Positions 5,565 to 46,790 of a stretch of 64,000 nt of DNA are shown here, one piece after another. Below the pieces are notes generated by a model, which was not told the DNA's origin, ran no database searches, and saw only the letters and a list, made by a program, of their open reading frames with translations. The stretch comes from Minisyncoccia bacterium. Its GTDB lineage: Bacteria; Patescibacteriota; Minisyncoccia; Phycocordibacterales; UBA918. Each line of letters opens with the position of its first letter. The stretch's first letter is position 1. The position numbers were made by a program, and so were the translations under genes. The stretch is taken from assembly GCA_046598345.1 (NCBI GenBank), contig JBKJIT010000003.1, positions 73,023-137,022 of the forward strand, read 5' to 3'.

Positions 5565-5606
5565 GGAAGAAAGTATCATACAACCTGAACAGGTCCTGCA
5601 AGGACC
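5565..5606 (+). repeat. Repeat family 1, copy c5: GAAAGTATCATACAACCTGAACAG-GTCC-TGCAA-GGAC
   Basis: It shares the GAAAAGTATC...CAACCTG(A/T)AC(A/T)G-stem-TG(T)AA-stem' architecture with 11361-11432, 11521-11575, 44281-44340 and 46727-46790. The stems differ in a compensatory way. Confidence 0.65.
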
Positions 5607-5835
5607 GGCTCTCCCTGGGCGCCAAAATTAAAAACAACCACATCCAGACACAACTGTTGAAAACTGGGGAGAAGTAAGTTGATATGTGTATAAAGGACAA
5701 TTTGTAAAAGTCGTGTTGTCCTTAATATATGGCGTATAGACTTGATATGATAAGGTTTACTCTAGTTTTTAATGCTTGAATAGGTGTTTCACGTGGAACG
5801 TGTTTCCCATGAAACATATGTAGTAAGGTATATCC

Positions 5836-6231
5836 ATGGCTATACATAATACTATTGGAAGACTCGGGGAAGATTTGGCTGCCGACTGGCTCCGAAGGAA
5901 GGGTTTTACCATTGTTTCATGCAATTACAGACAAAAGTGGGGGGAGATTGATATTATCGCTAAAATGGATGGGCGTACTCACTTTTGTGAAGTGAAGACC
6001 GTTTCATATGAAACCATGTCTTTACTCGAGTATGCTGTTTCACATGGAACTTGGAGACCAGAGGAAAAGGTTGATTCGTATAAGCTTAAAAAATTCGCGA
6101 GAACAGTGGAAACTTGGCTTTCTGAAAATAAATACTTAGGTTCTTGGCAGATTGATGTTATTGCAGTGCGAATGGTTCCACGTGAAAAGCACGCAAGAAT
6201 AACAATAATCGAAAACGTGATTATTGAATGA
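5836..6231 (+). CDS. YraN/UPF0102 family endonuclease
   Basis: GEDLAADWLRRKGFTIVSCNYRQKWGEIDIIAKMDGRTHFCEVKT, the UPF0102 signature. Confidence 0.8.
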   Translation: MAIHNTIGRLGEDLAADWLRRKGFTIVSCNYRQKWGEIDIIAKMDGRTHFCEVKTVSYETMSLLEYAVSHGTWRPEEKVDSYKLKKFARTVETWLSENKYLGSWQIDVIAVRMVPREKHARITIIENVIIE

Positions 6232-6246
6232 TTCCACGTGAAACAT

Positions 6247-6867
6247 CTATTTCTGAAGCAATTTCTGAATATCTTCGATAATTTCAGGGAATGTGGGTGA
6301 ATTGAAGTGTCCTCTGTCCTTAAATAAGATATATTCAGCTTTTGGTAGGGCTATGTGATACTTTTCTCCATGTGAATAGGGAACGCAGTCATCGTCTTTT
6401 GAGTGATAAATAACGATGTTTTCGGTGTTCTTGTAGATATCTACAAGCTTAGAGGGGTCAGGGTTAAAATCCCCACCGTCCTCGCCACCGAAATTATCTG
6501 GCTCAAAGGGTGCTGCAACGAGATACAGTTTCCGAATAGGGAAAGGCGTTTGGTTTTCTGAAAGGTATTTTGCAAGAAAATACGCCCCCTGTGAGTGTCC
6601 TATAAGGATTATTTCCCCATTTATTAGCTCAAAATAACGCTCGAACCAGATTTTCCATTCGATATAGCGCGCGTTTTGTGTGTTGGGCATGGATGGATAA
6701 AAGACATCACACGTTGACCCAAATTCTTCTCTCAGTGTTTCTTTCCATTTTTTTCGCTTCAAAATACCAAAAAAATCATCAATTGGCTCTGTTCTTAGGT
6801 TTTCTAAGAACATTTCATAGTTTCGGTACGCTGTGCCTCCATGGATGTAGACGATTTGAGTTTTCAT
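6247..6867 (-). CDS. Alpha/beta hydrolase fold serine hydrolase
   Basis: GHSQGAYF nucleophile elbow (G-x-S-x-G). The size and layout fit small esterase/RBBP9-like hydrolases. Confidence 0.55.
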   Translation of the reverse strand: MKTQIVYIHGGTAYRNYEMFLENLRTEPIDDFFGILKRKKWKETLREEFGSTCDVFYPSMPNTQNARYIEWKIWFERYFELINGEIILIGHSQGAYFLAKYLSENQTPFPIRKLYLVAAPFEPDNFGGEDGGDFNPDPSKLVDIYKNTENIVIYHSKDDDCVPYSHGEKYHIALPKAEYILFKDRGHFNSPTFPEIIEDIQKLLQK

Positions 6868-6936
6868 CTAACCATAATACGAAACAATCCTGACTTTGTC
6901 AGGATTGTTTCGTATTCTGATTGAGAGTGGACTCTT

Positions 6937-6983
6937 TCATTTTAGTGTCTTCGTCCTGATATGGGTCGGGGAGCAGGGAATCT
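6937..6983 (-). repeat. Partial duplicate of the tRNA-Pro 3' end plus downstream flank (att-like direct repeat)
   Basis: ttcattttagtgtcttcgtcctgatatgggtcggggagcagggaatc versus 7279-7325 ttcattttggtgtctttgtcctaacctgggtcggggagcagggaatc. About 48 bp with about 6 mismatches, 342 bp apart. Confidence 0.7.
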
Positions 6984-7056
6984 TTCCTTACATTAACAGT
7001 CTAGGTTGTATGACCATTTCTTTCAGAAATGTTCGACAACCTTTTCGATTCCCTTG

Positions 7057-44229: not shown

Positions 44230-44280
44230 ATGCGCACTTAGGTGAGAGGTGACCAAATGTCACCTCGCAAGACCTTGTTA

Positions 44281-44340
44281 GATATTTCTTGAGTTTACGA
44301 AAGAAAATATCATCAAGGTGTACTGAACCTGTAAGGTTTG
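44281..44340 (+). repeat. Repeat family 1, copy c2 in the fusA leader: GATATTTC...GAAAATATC stem + CATCAAGGTGTACTGA-ACC-TGTAA-GGT
   Basis: See the family 1 alignment. Confidence 0.65.
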
Positions 44341-44421
44341 GGCCTTTTTATTTTCTTTTGAAGATCGCGGAGGCGCTCCTAAAAAGAGAGGTATTAATTC
44401 ATAATTTAGAACAAAAACATC

Positions 44422-46590
44422 ATGGCACGAGCATTTCCATTACATAAACTCCGCAATTTCGGTATTGTGGCGCACGTTGACGCGGGTAAGACGACGACGT
44501 CTGAACGCGTACTTTTCTATACGGGAATGTCGCACAAAATCGGAGAAGTGCATGATGGTTCTACGGTGACTGACTGGATGGAGCAGGAGCGTGAGCGTGG
44601 TATCACGATTACCGCAGCTGCGATTTCTTGTAACTGGACACCGTCTCTTATTGCTGACCGAGTTGACCCTGAACTCAAATACAGTTTCAATATTATTGAT
44701 ACACCCGGGCACATCGATTTTACCGCTGAGGTTAAGCGCTCTATGCGTGTGCTCGACGGCGCGATTGTCGTGTTCGATGGTGTCGCCGGAGTGGAGCCGC
44801 AATCAGAAACAAACTGGCGCTACGCTGACGAAGCAGGAGTTCCCCGAATTTGTTTCATTAACAAGATGGACCGAGTGGGAGCTGACTTCGAGCGTTCATA
44901 CGACAGTATTTTGAAGCGTCTTTCAAAGAAAGCCGTTCGCTACCAAATTCCATGGGGAAGTGAAGAGAACCTCAAGGGAGTCATCGACCTTCTCAAGATG
45001 AAGGCCTACACCTTTGAAGGAGAAATGGGAATGAAAGTTGTTGAAACGGAAATTCCTGCTGAACTCCAGGCCGACGCTGAAAAATACCACGCTGAACTCA
45101 TTGAGCGGATTGTTGAAAATGACGATGCACAGATGAGTGCGTACCTAGAGGGAGTAATCCCATCATACGAAGAACTCCAGGCAACGCTCCGAAAGGCAGT
45201 AATTGGAAATAAGATTTTCCCGGTTATGACTGGATCTGCGCTCAAGAATATGGGTGTACAGCTGATTCTCGACGCCGTGGTGAATTACCTCCCATCTCCT
45301 ATTGACCTCCCGGCGGTAAAAGGAATTAATCCAAACACCGACGCAGAGGAGACGAGGGAGCCTTCTGACGAAGCGCCGTTCTGTGCGCTTGCGTTCAAGC
45401 TCCAGACTGACCCATTTGTGGGCCAGCTCACCTTCTTCCGTGTGTATTCAGGAACGGTAAAGGCGGGAAGTTATCTCTACAACTCAACGACCGGAGAGAA
45501 ACAGCGTCTCGGACGCATCGTCCGCCTCATGGCAGATAAGCGAACCGAAATTGAAGAAGTGTATGCAGGGGAAATTGCTGCAGGAGTAGGACTTAAGGAT
45601 GTAAAGACATCTCACACGCTTTCTGACGAAGAACACCCACTCATTCTTGAAAAGATTATTTTCCCTGAGCCTGTGGTTGCAATGCGTATTGAGCCAAAGA
45701 CGAAGAACGACCAAGAAAAAATGGGTATGGCAATGAAGAAGCTTTCTGATGAAGATCCAACCTTTAAAGTTTCAACGGATGAGGAGACACTGGAGACGAT
45801 TATTGCAGGTATGGGTGAGCTTCACCTTGAAATTCTTGTCGATCGTATGAAGCGAGAGTTCGGTGTTGAGGCAAACGTGGGTAAGCCACAAGTTGCGTAC
45901 CGCGAAACAATTCAGCGTCCAGCAGAAGCAGAATACAAATACATAAAGCAGTCTGGAGGTCGCGGTCAGTACGGACACGTGAAAATTCGTATTAAGCCAA
46001 TGGAACCGCTCGTAGAAGGAGAGAAAGAGAAAAAGAATGTTACTCGCGAAGATCACTATGAATTCGTAAATGCGATTAAGGGAGGAGTCATTCCTAACGA
46101 ATTCATTCCTGCGGTTATGAAGGGATGTAAAGAGGCGATGGCGCGTGGGTTCGTTGCAGGATACAAGATGGAAGATATCTCTGTCGAACTCTTCGATGGT
46201 AGTTTCCACGAAGTAGACTCAAGCGAAATCGCGTTCAAGCTCGCCGCTATAAATGCATTCAAGGAAGCTGCACAGAAGGCTGGTGCCGTACTTCTTGAGC
46301 CAGTTATGAAAGTGGAAGTCACGACCCCTGAAAAGTTCATGGGGGATGTGAACGGAAACATCAGTTCTAAGCGAGGTCTTGTTGAAGGAATGGATGACCG
46401 CGATATGGTTAAGGTGATTCACGCGAAGGTTCCACTCTCTGAGATGTTCGGATACACAACGATCCTTCGCTCAATGACAGAAGGACGTGCCAACATGACG
46501 ATGGAATTCGATCACTACGAAGTCGTACCACCAAACGTCGCAATCGAAATCAAGAAGGCCCGCGGAGTAAAAGATATCGAGGTAGAATAA
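44422..46590 (+). CDS. fusA: Elongation factor G
   Basis: AHVDAGKTTTSERVL...DTPGHIDFT...NKMDR G-domain, plus domains II-V. Confidence 0.95.
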   Translation: MARAFPLHKLRNFGIVAHVDAGKTTTSERVLFYTGMSHKIGEVHDGSTVTDWMEQERERGITITAAAISCNWTPSLIADRVDPELKYSFNIIDTPGHIDFTAEVKRSMRVLDGAIVVFDGVAGVEPQSETNWRYADEAGVPRICFINKMDRVGADFERSYDSILKRLSKKAVRYQIPWGSEENLKGVIDLLKMKAYTFEGEMGMKVVETEIPAELQADAEKYHAELIERIVENDDAQMSAYLEGVIPSYEELQATLRKAVIGNKIFPVMTGSALKNMGVQLILDAVVNYLPSPIDLPAVKGINPNTDAEETREPSDEAPFCALAFKLQTDPFVGQLTFFRVYSGTVKAGSYLYNSTTGEKQRLGRIVRLMADKRTEIEEVYAGEIAAGVGLKDVKTSHTLSDEEHPLILEKIIFPEPVVAMRIEPKTKNDQEKMGMAMKKLSDEDPTFKVSTDEETLETIIAGMGELHLEILVDRMKREFGVEANVGKPQVAYRETIQRPAEAEYKYIKQSGGRGQYGHVKIRIKPMEPLVEGEKEKKNVTREDHYEFVNAIKGGVIPNEFIPAVMKGCKEAMARGFVAGYKMEDISVELFDGSFHEVDSSEIAFKLAAINAFKEAAQKAGAVLLEPVMKVEVTTPEKFMGDVNGNISSKRGLVEGMDDRDMVKVIHAKVPLSEMFGYTTILRSMTEGRANMTMEFDHYEVVPPNVAIEIKKARGVKDIEVE

Positions 46591-46591
46591 A

Positions 46592-46625
46592 AGAAAAGAG
46601 CACCGCAAGGTGCTCTTTTCTTTTA
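46592..46625 (+). terminator. Intrinsic terminator after fusA
   Basis: aaaagagcaccgcaaggtgctcttttctttt. Confidence 0.7.
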
Positions 46626-46726
46626 TTACCTCTCATCTGTTACTCCGCGGGCCGAAGGCGAGGGGTGAGGAATGGGATGGGACCCATTCCTCAAGAGGTT
46701 GTCGACAAAATAATCCCACGTCAGCG

Positions 46727-46790
46727 GTTTTATTTTGTCATACAACCTGAACAGCGTCTGTAAGACGGGAAGGATGTTCAGGACGAAGCA
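46727..46790 (+). repeat. Repeat family 1, copy c4: TTATTTTGTCATACAACCTGAACAG-CGTC-TGTAA-GACG, nested in a CCTGAACA/TGTTCAGG stem
   Basis: See the family 1 alignment. Confidence 0.6.

Follow-up and report, generated by a model that had tools for sequence, protein, structure and literature searches.

The 64-kb window of a Minisyncoccia bacterium analyzed here (contig JBKJIT010000003.1, positions 73,023 to 137,022 of the forward strand) carries eight copies of a short, structured, non-coding element, and further copies were found in 8-kb pieces of other genomes that made up the rest of the comparison (loci numbered L001 etc.). We tentatively interpret the family as miniature, non-autonomous integrative elements that fold as a single strand and that target and rebuild tRNA genes, a reading in which our confidence falls somewhat short of even. 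At a tRNA locus the gene is intact and a partial copy of it lies beyond the element, on the 5′ or the 3′ side of the gene; the orientation there is fixed, copies can accumulate in tandem, and sites occur both occupied and empty. Together with sharp edges and the lack of a promoter and of coding capacity, these features suggest the footprint of tRNA integration. The folding of only one strand, non-canonical pairs, the lack of terminal inverted repeats and a G-rich 5′ flank point to a single-stranded intermediate. Full-text literature searches returned no earlier description of the element, and in the searched literature the family is undescribed.

Anatomy of the Element and the Folding Strand

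The core spans about 70 nt and reaches about 105–110 nt together with the hairpin that precedes it. Three hairpins stand in a row: P0, then the long hairpin P2, interrupted by an internal loop and capped by a GNRA-like or tandem-GA tip, and, after a linker G(A/U)AC(A/U)G, the hairpin P3 with the loop C-UGUAA-G. Two types of copies were distinguished. The free-standing type A has the linker GAACAG and a P0 followed by CGCAAGAGGUUG, and type B, which is bound to tRNA genes, has the linker GUACUG and the start GAA(A/G)AGGUUG.

The initial annotation of the window had described five plus-strand copies of a unit of about 55 nt with a covarying hairpin. The stems that it had read (GTCC/GGAC, GAAAC/GTTTC, GATCC/GGATC, AACC/GGTT and CGTC/GACG, with the loop UGUAA, or UGCAA in copy 1) are correct. 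The unit is longer than proposed (core of about 70 nt, about 105 nt with P0), the hairpin noticed being its last third, and GAAAAGTATC, taken for a plain shared sequence, is the 3′ strand of P2, in which CAACC pairs with an upstream GGTTG. In every window copy of that annotation GGTTG(T/C)C...ATTTT pairs with ...AAAAT..ACAACC, and the pair GGTTG/CAACC becomes CCTTG/CAAGG in copy 4 and CTGTTGCG/CGCAACGG in copy 2 (copies are numbered as listed below).

A covariance model, R1, was built from 85 copies (67 positions, 19 base pairs), and covariation was evaluated on 131 aligned copies against 500 shuffles and against controls with the partner column slid. In the alignment 93.1% of the paired cells were actually paired, versus 73.2% in shuffles, and double-sided changes occurred at 18 of the 19 pairs. 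Compensatory cells numbered 420, compared with 113 after shuffling (matched by none of the 500 shuffles) and 29–114 in the slid controls. All helices covary and the signal is far above chance, which bears out the earlier proposal of a conserved element with a covarying hairpin.

The P0 stem of 39 distinct copies contains 285 Watson–Crick pairs, eight G·U and no A·C. Its foot is invariant, 5′-GUGAG facing CGCAA-3′ as G·A, U-A, G-C, A·G (in 37 of 39 copies) and G-C, and the hairpin as a whole exists as a few distinct sequence variants, which reappear in different genomes. Helix P2a holds six G·U and one A·C, giving 14 versus 1 for the two well-aligned helices; since G·U pairs outnumber A·C, a single strand, the one read in the initial annotation, folds, either as RNA or as single-stranded DNA. 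The wobble count over the whole alignment (39 versus 40) was rejected as misleading, because two variants of P2b are aligned one base out of register.

Conservation has sharp edges, beginning at (G)G|GUGAG and ending at P3, and no position-specific signal was found upstream or downstream of them. Boxes resembling a −10 element preceded 6 of 52 copies, compared with 2–4 of 52 control windows, hence no enrichment and no conserved promoter. Most copies have no U-run after P3. A closing helix of type A was sought as well; the best flank-to-flank stem measured 4.6 bp versus 4.66 bp in shuffled flanks, none being above chance. The units of 100–150 nt contain no open reading frame (ORF).

The tRNA Frame of the Type B Copies

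Forty-five motif copies follow a complete tRNA gene on its own strand at a distance of up to 320 nt (50–140 nt in most cases), the tRNAs representing at least 16 identities (Ser, Ile, Cys, Gly, Ala, Tyr, Trp, Leu, Glu, Gln, Arg, Lys, Val, Met, Asn and Thr). The link to tRNA loci drawn in the initial annotation is thus real and strong. Most of the 45 belong to type B, and a few are type A copies placed between the tRNA and a type B unit (L025, L037, L091, L111).

The order in a type B locus is tRNA, terminator-like hairpin, A′, core and A2, and this framing by inverted and direct copies of the tRNA 3′ end had been missed. A′ is the reverse complement of the T-loop, the 3′ strand of the T-stem and often the 3′ strand of the acceptor stem. 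It is a true complement and not a copy of the 5′ strand of the tRNA, as seen for tRNA-Gly(TCC), in which the T-stem 5′ strand is GGGGG (with two G·U pairs) and A′ is AGAGG. Where a type B copy has a P0, this hairpin separates the acceptor part of A′ from its T part, exactly at their boundary. A2, which the 3′ strand of P3 joins without a gap, repeats the tRNA in direct orientation, starting in the T-loop and stopping at the discriminator.

The median identity of A2 to the tRNA is 100% over about 20 nt and 35%, the random level, over the next 20 nt; 17 of 20 perfect A2 copies are followed by unrelated trailers. A2 stops sharply at the tRNA end. A retro-copy of the mature tRNA was rejected as its source: among about 25 loci whose gene lacks CCA, the triplet follows A2 in two (L078, L113), which is the chance level. 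Over the 12 nt of T-loop and T-stem, the tRNA, the reverse complement of A′ and A2 agree at 383 of 504 positions. Independent covariation of A′ and A2 was absent, the two agreeing against the tRNA at eight positions versus 106 single deviations. In its acceptor part A′ shows deviations at 211 of 415 positions, some of them due to the register shift that an unadjusted insertion of P0 causes.

The tRNA end, trailer, terminator and A′ often form one long palindrome, which is sometimes perfect (21 of 21 positions plus the terminator in L066). Units accrete in tandem in L103 (two identical units of 137 nt), L066, L018, L026 and L105 and as copies 2 and 3 of the window. Other cores may occupy the same frame, namely a "core2" at tRNA-Gly(TCC) in L122–L124 and the first units of L026 and L105. 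At tRNA-Gly(TCC) the frame, with P0 at the acceptor/T-stem junction of A′ and with A2 behind the core, is kept in five genomes, even where the core differs. A2 has decayed in L056, L095, L022 and L031. In L056 it matches the acceptor sequence of a related genome, L060, the tRNA and A′ of L056 itself having changed, and in this locus A2 is a passive relic.

Neither ARAGORN nor the Rfam tRNA model RF00005 called type B units as tRNA. Terminators after tRNA genes were also seen as long palindromes reaching 5–20 nt into the tRNA 3′ end, both in the window (5150–5235 after tRNA-Arg, 5480–5525 and 11266–11325) and in L122 and L125. They occur even in places that lack a core of the family, an example being the tRNA-Arg terminator, GTGCAC ACGAGC ... 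GCTCGT GTGCA. As RNA, such palindromes would compete with tRNA folding, and they cause spurious miRNA-like matches in Rfam.

Copies and Landmarks in the Window

The scan of the window with R1 (filters off, E ≤ 10) returned eight copies, about one per 8 kb. All five plus-strand copies of the initial annotation are significant matches (34.7–59.7 bits), and three copies on the minus strand (6982–7046, 7179–7247 and 55897–55957) had been overlooked. Bit scores below refer to matches to the covariance model.

5408..5479 (+), tRNA-Gly(GCC), called by ARAGORN and Rfam; A′ and A2 of copy 1 correspond to its 3′ end
5526..5623 (+), type B copy 1, downstream of tRNA-Gly(GCC); A′ (complement of T-loop and T-stem) 5526–5538, core (P2, linker, P3) 5536–5607 with a core match at 5536–5607 (58.6 bits), A2 a decayed copy of the tRNA 3′ end at about 5603–5623
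6936..7060 (−), type B copy downstream of tRNA-Pro(UGG), 42.9 bits; A′ 7044–7060, core 6982–7046, A2 with duplicated trailer 6936–6984
7179..7266 (−), divergent type A copy between tRNA-Pro and the type B copy; match 7179–7247, 29.0 bits, E = 6e-5
7304..7379 (−), tRNA-Pro(UGG), called by ARAGORN and Rfam; both copies at 6936..7266 lie downstream on its strand
11204..11275 (+), tRNA-Gly(TCC), called by ARAGORN and Rfam; its 3′ end is mirrored and copied in copy 2
11266..11325, perfect palindrome with 28-bp arms, read from the sequence
11317..11447 (+), type B copy 2, downstream of tRNA-Gly(TCC); A′ acceptor part TGCGGGCGA 11317–11325, P0 11326–11351, A′ T part GAGGAATCGAA 11352–11362, core match 11360–11434 (51.2 bits), A2 TTCGATTCCTCTCGCCC 11431–11447, 17 of 17 positions identical to the tRNA; minimum free energy z-score −5.8
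11494..11571 (+), copy 3, second unit in tandem with copy 2, 34.7 bits, fold z-score −0.16; 3′ half (3′ strand of P2, linker GUACUG, P3) intact, 5′ half replaced or decayed and fused to a hairpin of a second repeat family, A2 shrunk to GATCGATTC
44242..44340 (+), type A copy 4 in the 5′ untranslated region of fusA; P0 44244–44268, core 44268–44340, 57.0 bits
46665..46769 (+), type A copy 5, between the fusA terminator and a bidirectional terminator; core match 46692–46769, 59.7 bits, z-score −3.7
55897..55983 (−), type A copy, antisense in the 167-nt rplW–rplB spacer of the S10 operon; match 55897–55957, 40.4 bits

The palindrome at 11266–11325 comprises the acceptor 3′ strand of the tRNA, the trailer, the terminator hairpin (loop TATA), the mirrored trailer and the acceptor part of A′, and it gives rise to the miRNA-like Rfam matches at 11259–11331. 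The arrangement of copies 2 and 3 recurs at the orthologous tRNA in L125. On the minus strand, A2 plus 25 nt of trailer at 6936–6984 are about 90% identical to the 3′ end and trailer of tRNA-Pro(UGG), and the P0 of the neighboring divergent copy is GAGUUGC-UUU-GCAACGC. Copy 4, in which P2a shows the compensatory swap CCUUG/CAAGG, is also present in the identical contig L001, and copy 5 has a rare long P2b.

At the gathering threshold of Rfam 15 the whole window yielded four tRNAs and nothing else. At E ≤ 10, in the segments 5000–12000 and 44000–50000, no match overlapped any copy, and 18 other loci gave only tRNA, tmRNA and separate group I introns. The comparison with Rfam that the initial annotation had named therefore matched the element to no family.

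Distribution among Genomes

The scan beyond the window, a further check named there, returned many more copies with covariation above chance. The exact 23-nt pattern ACAACCTGWACWGNNNNTGYAAG was searched in GTDB with one genome per species and hit at least 119 loci, nearly all of the listed ones labeled as CPR (Candidate Phyla Radiation)/Patescibacteria. Among the matches listed, R1 confirmed 111 of 119, hence at least 111 loci, and the eight unconfirmed ones all bear labels from outside the CPR, including Treponema, Bacteroidales, Yoonia, Desulfobacterales, Bacillota and Acidobacteriota. Across the labels Saccharibacteria, Paceibacteria/Paceibacterota, Kaiserbacteria and Parcubacteria the 23-nt core is unchanged, again among the matches listed. 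As a negative control, 2.9 million viral contigs gave 21 pattern matches, none of them confirmed by R1, and carriage by phages was rejected.

Genuine copies were also present on contigs of metagenome-assembled genomes labeled Acidimicrobiales (L014, L051, L060), Patiriisocius (L044, L056, L075) and Azotimanducaceae (L055). These are probably mis-binned CPR contigs, since L075, labeled Patiriisocius, encodes a CPR-like elongation factor G (EF-G), 71% identical to that of the window. In 72 kb of loci picked independently of the element six copies were found, and in the window together with the element-blind loci of four relatives 6 of 15 tRNA genes (about 40%) have a copy.

Gain, Turnover, and Long Residence

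By ribosomal protein L2, the closest relatives of the window are Kaiserbacteria/Minisyncoccia with 79–82% identity, others reaching up to 84%; an exact-protein search for close strains returned only the source sample. Occupied and empty rplW–rplB sites were compared between relatives with 82–84% identical L2. The junction is empty (5–11 nt) in six relatives and extends to 167 nt with the element in the window. It measures 128 nt in L148/L149 (1373–1500) and in L152/L153 (1374–1500), which carry two other structured inserts with only the hairpin tip UUAYGAGYGNAGCGA in common. One of them reads as a three-way junction, CCCAGUGCAAU[GCGGC-UUU-GCCGC]CAA[CGCCC-GUGA-GGGCG]UAUUGCACCGGG. Judged by these sequences, the junction appears to be an insertion hot spot with lineage-specific occupants.

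Each tRNA locus of the window cluster likewise bears an element in some syntenic relatives and not in others; these relatives came from a metagenome scan and share 43–58% protein identity. In L025 a type A copy is nested in a type B copy, whose P0 loop it interrupts. No target-site duplication was visible either at this nested insertion or at rplW–rplB, the empty sites being those of diverged genomes.

The copy just downstream of fusA, found in the window, L028 and L075, bears on the age of the insertions. The window and L028, with EF-G 90.7% identical, have the rare long P2b in common and differ by a compensatory change in P3 (CGUC/GACG to CGCC/GGCG), their flanks being unalignable and their P0 variants different. 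This comparison indicates that copies persist, keep their structure and exchange modules.

Gene Context of the Type A Copies

Relative to flanking genes, type A copies were placed in sense in six cases, antisense in seven, convergent in four and divergent in three by conservative ORF calls, and 14/10/11/10 in the same four classes by looser calls. Type A has no preferred orientation relative to the neighboring genes, and the neighboring gene families reflect synteny around tRNAs, with no regulon. The position in the fusA leader was seen in the window only. The L028 copy follows the fusA stop codon, precedes the terminator and so is transcribed in sense.

Type A copies also occur in a mirror-image frame at the tRNA 5′ end. 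In L012, L017, L097, L106 and L110 the element lies inside an upstream partial duplicate of tRNA-Asn (about position −3 to 23), and in L106 a type A copy in the 5′ duplicate is combined with a type B copy in the 3′ duplicate. The true tRNA-Asn(GUU) gene follows the 5′ duplicate and has a group I intron at 35/36 (CUGU|intron|UAA) in L012 (7285–7625, plus strand) and L017 (3178–2845, minus strand), where ARAGORN misses it. Introns of this type have been reported recently (PMC13011429). The element itself is not a group I intron or a fragment of one, the RF00028 matches in L012, L017 and L099 being separate from it by 75–190 nt, with none in the window.

A Proposed Miniature Element Targeting tRNA Genes

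We infer that the elements move, that they do so as single-stranded nucleic acid and that an enzyme acts on them. The copies sit in intergenic DNA in either orientation and strongly favor tRNA genes; entry would be at the T-loop in type B and, beside tRNA-Asn, at the junction of the D-arm and the anticodon stem in type A. The tRNA is intact at these sites, and a partial tRNA copy, bounded sharply by the mature tRNA end, stands beyond the element. The single-stranded intermediate would be recognized by its shape, in the manner of IS200/IS605 ends, integron attC sites and the CTX-phage attachment site, and the A1–terminator–A′ hairpin may be a folded single-stranded attachment site imitating the duplex target. 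Alternatively, A′ may result from synthesis primed at a nick in the T-loop, with fold-back at the terminator palindrome and copying of the displaced strand to its end.

Among known systems the closest parallel is a tRNA-integrating element joined to a folded single-strand site. The family shares with tRNA-integrating elements the intact tRNA, the direct repeat from the T-loop to the 3′ end, the decaying displaced fragment, tandem accretion and fixed orientation, and differs in its size of 100–150 nt, the lack of an integrase, the at least 16 tRNA identities, the inverted A′ and the mirror case at the 5′ end. The footprint of an attachment site in a tRNA gene (an intact tRNA with a 3′ direct repeat ending at the tRNA end) was found, and no integrase or recombinase is encoded by the element or was shown to act on it. 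With the attC sites of integrons and the CTX-phage attP used by XerCD, the family has in common the folding of one strand, imperfect hairpins with conserved unpaired or non-canonical positions, and the absence of terminal inverted repeats and, as far as the two insertions compared with diverged empty sites show, of target duplication; the A1–terminator–A′ hairpin could imitate a duplex target in the same way. It has, however, three hairpins instead of one, no link to an integron integrase or to Xer was shown, and neither a single-stranded nor a circular form was seen.

Miniature derivatives of IS200/IS605 and the REP/RAYT system (REP, repetitive extragenic palindromic) resemble the family in strand-specific subterminal hairpins, the lack of inverted terminal repeats and, within the same limits, of target duplication, a short conserved motif in the 5′ flank (here a G-run) and insertion into a hairpin loop (L025). 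REP units, however, are 20–40 nt long and species-specific, whereas the core described here spans about 70–105 nt and is phylum-wide, and no Y1 (HUH) transposase was found. The pneumococcal BOX, the Neisseria Correia and the Rickettsia palindromic elements are similar as numerous short non-coding copies that recombine hairpin modules (here P0 variants, "core2" and the second repeat family) and that sit between genes and within operons in either orientation. They differ by inverted terminal repeats and/or target duplications, genus specificity and the absence of tRNA-end mimicry.

Several observations weigh against a mobile element, and our confidence stays below even because neither an enzyme nor an excised or circular form was found, the 23-mer is identical phylum-wide, individual copies appear to be under long-term selection and no route to the tRNA-matched segments is at hand. 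No transposase, integrase or reverse transcriptase was found near any copy in the window, which also has no recombinase homologue, and no Y1 (HUH) transposase was present among the annotated ORFs of the 64 kb of the source genome and the 8-kb pieces of the others. Repeats of the REP type and miniature inverted-repeat transposable elements (MITEs) are usually species-specific, and an identical 23-nt motif across deeply diverged CPR classes is unusual for them. Compensatory differences within the genome, together with the copy downstream of fusA, point to long-term selection on individual copies, which a fixed selfish copy would not feel unless gene conversion were frequent. Each of at least 16 tRNAs would require its own exactly matching segment within a single family, with no demonstrated route to acquire such segments. 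Finally, RNA-type motifs such as GNRA-like loops and tandem G·A pairs fit a role as RNA equally well.

Alternative Explanations

The strongest competitor, which we regard as possible though unlikely, is a structured non-coding RNA selected in the host, in which the scaffold carries tRNA 3′-end sequence of about 20 nt, antisense as A′ and sense as A2, and would form a mimic or guide matched to the tRNA. The unit could be tRNA-like and trimmed by RNase P and RNase Z, or A′ could sequester the tRNA 3′ end and A2 replace it. Such an RNA would account for the strong covariation of all helices on one folding strand, the G·A and A·G pairs of the P0 foot with the GNRA-like or tandem-GA tips, and the phylum-wide sequence conservation. 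The compensatory change at the orthologous site downstream of fusA, the sense transcription of the L028 copy, the frame kept at tRNA-Gly(TCC) in five genomes even around a different core and the end of A2 exactly at the discriminator agree with it as well. It is harder to reconcile with the lack of a conserved promoter or terminator, with the random orientation relative to transcription units, including the antisense copy in the S10 operon, and with type B copies placed behind strong terminator hairpins. Moreover, A′ and A2 never covary independently of the tRNA (8 versus 106), the acceptor part of the A′:A2 helix is missing in many copies, A2 decays in four loci and the presence of the element varies among relatives.

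Narrower RNA classes were considered and rejected. A riboswitch or leader class does not agree with the orientations of type A (6/7/4/3), and an independent small-RNA gene does not agree with the absence of its own promoter and terminator at fixed positions. The junction strands (GAAA, 5–6 nt and 0 nt) misfit the hammerhead core in our own comparison, and no Rfam ribozyme matched. A T-box-like or codon–anticodon pairing of the linker (UAC or AAC) with the P3 loop (GUA) would involve only 2–4 pairs and is broken by UGCAA in copy 1, and the invariance of the P3 loop precludes support from covariation.

Known tRNA-like RNAs include the tRNA-like domain of tmRNA and YrlA. Some type B copies can be drawn similarly, with an acceptor-like stem, the P0 arm at the position of the D/anticodon arm and a T-stem, but here the 5′ strand is not the 5′ half of a tRNA, being perfectly complementary to the 3′ strand, and the acceptor helix is often missing. 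The Rfam models of tRNA, tmRNA and YrlA and ARAGORN gave no match to type B units. A tRNA or tRNA-like RNA was rejected, given that tRNA models detect no cloverleaf and the acceptor helix is not maintained.

It is improbable, in our view, that type B is not a footprint but a selected programmable system, an RNA or single-stranded DNA scaffold combined with A2 and A′ as one guide or mimic per tRNA. By analogy with the flank-derived guides of TnpB/IscB elements it could steer homing to tRNA genes, or it could act on the tRNA itself as an alternative 3′ half, a nuclease decoy or a guide for processing. Such a system would be compatible with the data because A′ tracks the tRNA where A2 does not (L056), the frame is kept around two cores and A2 ends at the discriminator.

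Slightly less probable still is a domesticated repeat resembling REP or bacterial interspersed mosaic elements (BIMEs), serving termination, mRNA 3′-end protection or nucleoid organization and spread by recombination without dedicated transposition. The copies are indeed intergenic, often beside terminators and gene 3′ ends (fusA in three genomes, tRNAs), lie in both orientations and combine in a modular way with other hairpin families. The unit, however, is far longer and more elaborate than a REP unit of 20–40 nt, it folds strand-specifically, most copies end without a U-run, and the tRNA-end copies and the T-loop junction are left unexplained. A REP palindrome was rejected as the unit, which has three hairpins over 70–105 nt and in which the GUGAG head belongs to the P0 stem. 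A MITE was rejected for want of terminal inverted repeats, the inverted repeat that flanks type B being locus-specific tRNA sequence and not a terminus. The initial annotation had offered a REP/BIME-like repeat or a module of a small mobile element, which comes near to the explanation that we favor.

We consider it very unlikely that the copies are leftover attachment sites of integrase-encoding genomic islands or prophages that once resided in tRNA genes. A direct repeat covering the tRNA from its T-loop to its 3′ end is what such integration classically leaves, and large serine recombinase genes occur in four loci. Against this, the distance from the tRNA to the repeat is constant and tiny (in most loci 80–140 nt between the tRNA end and the 23-nt motif), one core is found at 16 or more tRNA identities whereas integrases are tRNA-specific, many copies lie away from tRNAs and the motif is unconfirmed in 2.9 million viral contigs.

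Scarcely credible, and already largely refuted, is the suggestion of the initial annotation that the element serves strongly expressed translation genes in cis, as a leader or a processing signal. Copy 4, located in the fusA leader directly behind a promoter-like site, and the copies after fusA in three genomes would suit this role. Against it, orientation is random, one copy lies antisense in a ribosomal protein operon, the fusA-leader site is confined to the window and the tuf-leader relatives proposed at 49506–49540 and 49690–49712 are short chance resemblances without an R1 match at E ≤ 10 with filters off.

If the elements are mobile, as we favor, they represent a new and very small tRNA-targeting element and would show how tRNA genes withstand repeated invasion in reduced genomes. 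The genomes of CPR bacteria are among the smallest and most densely packed known, and for the cultured model TM7x no validated small RNAs are reported (bioRxiv 10.1101/2022.03.25.485537). They would also mislead annotation through tRNA fragments, long palindromes and inflated operon spacers. If the family is a functional RNA, it is a phylum-wide RNA class with a built-in tRNA match. Under either reading the covariance model provides a direct handle for genome-wide surveys.

Neighboring Genes and a Second Repeat Family

An ORF family of 200–237 aa combines an N-terminal resolvase-type helix-turn-helix (HTH) with a LAGLIDADG-like motif similar to FxxGLxLYWGEGxK, Pfam recognizing the HTH only. 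Its members, which abut tRNA genes, were read in eight loci, at L008 227–925(−), L023 5523–6131(+), L085 7483–7998(−), L096 2544–3224(−) and L125 6334–7026(−) and in L052, L079 and L105, and in at least five loci the ORF ends 0–5 nt from the 5′ end of a tRNA (Tyr, Gly and others). From its sequence and position it is a candidate free-standing homing endonuclease at tRNA genes. As the enzyme partner of the element it was rejected, given no homologue in the window, no Pfam nuclease match and no PDB match. The large serine recombinase genes mentioned above (Resolvase, Recombinase and Zn ribbon domains) are those of L047, L018, L057 and L080, with no link to the element established.

Upstream of fusA a promoter-like TTGCCG-17 nt-TATAGT was noticed at 44201–44229, copy 4 starting 12 nt after it; given this site, the fusA leader would begin about 5 nt before copy 4. 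Behind the copy comes a U-rich run, GGGCCUUUUUAUUUUCUUUU, a possible attenuator. The S10 operon of the window is split between rplB and rpsS by about 1.6 kb (56856–58510) with a 106-aa ORF on the opposite strand and an ORF weakly matching His_Phos_1, the same gap in relatives being 0.25–1.2 kb long and holding different small ORFs.

The second repeat family is a long hairpin, GCGAG..GGGnAGgAGUUCUUA-[UGAGCGnAGCGAA]-UaAGAAACyUGaCsCC, located at 5276–5335 and 11447–11512 on the plus strand of the window and downstream of tRNA-Arg/tRNA-Gly in L122, L123 and L124. Its tip motif, in which tandem G·A pairs surround GC/GC, is found as well at the end of many first-family P2 hairpins and in the unrelated rplW–rplB inserts of L148 and L152.

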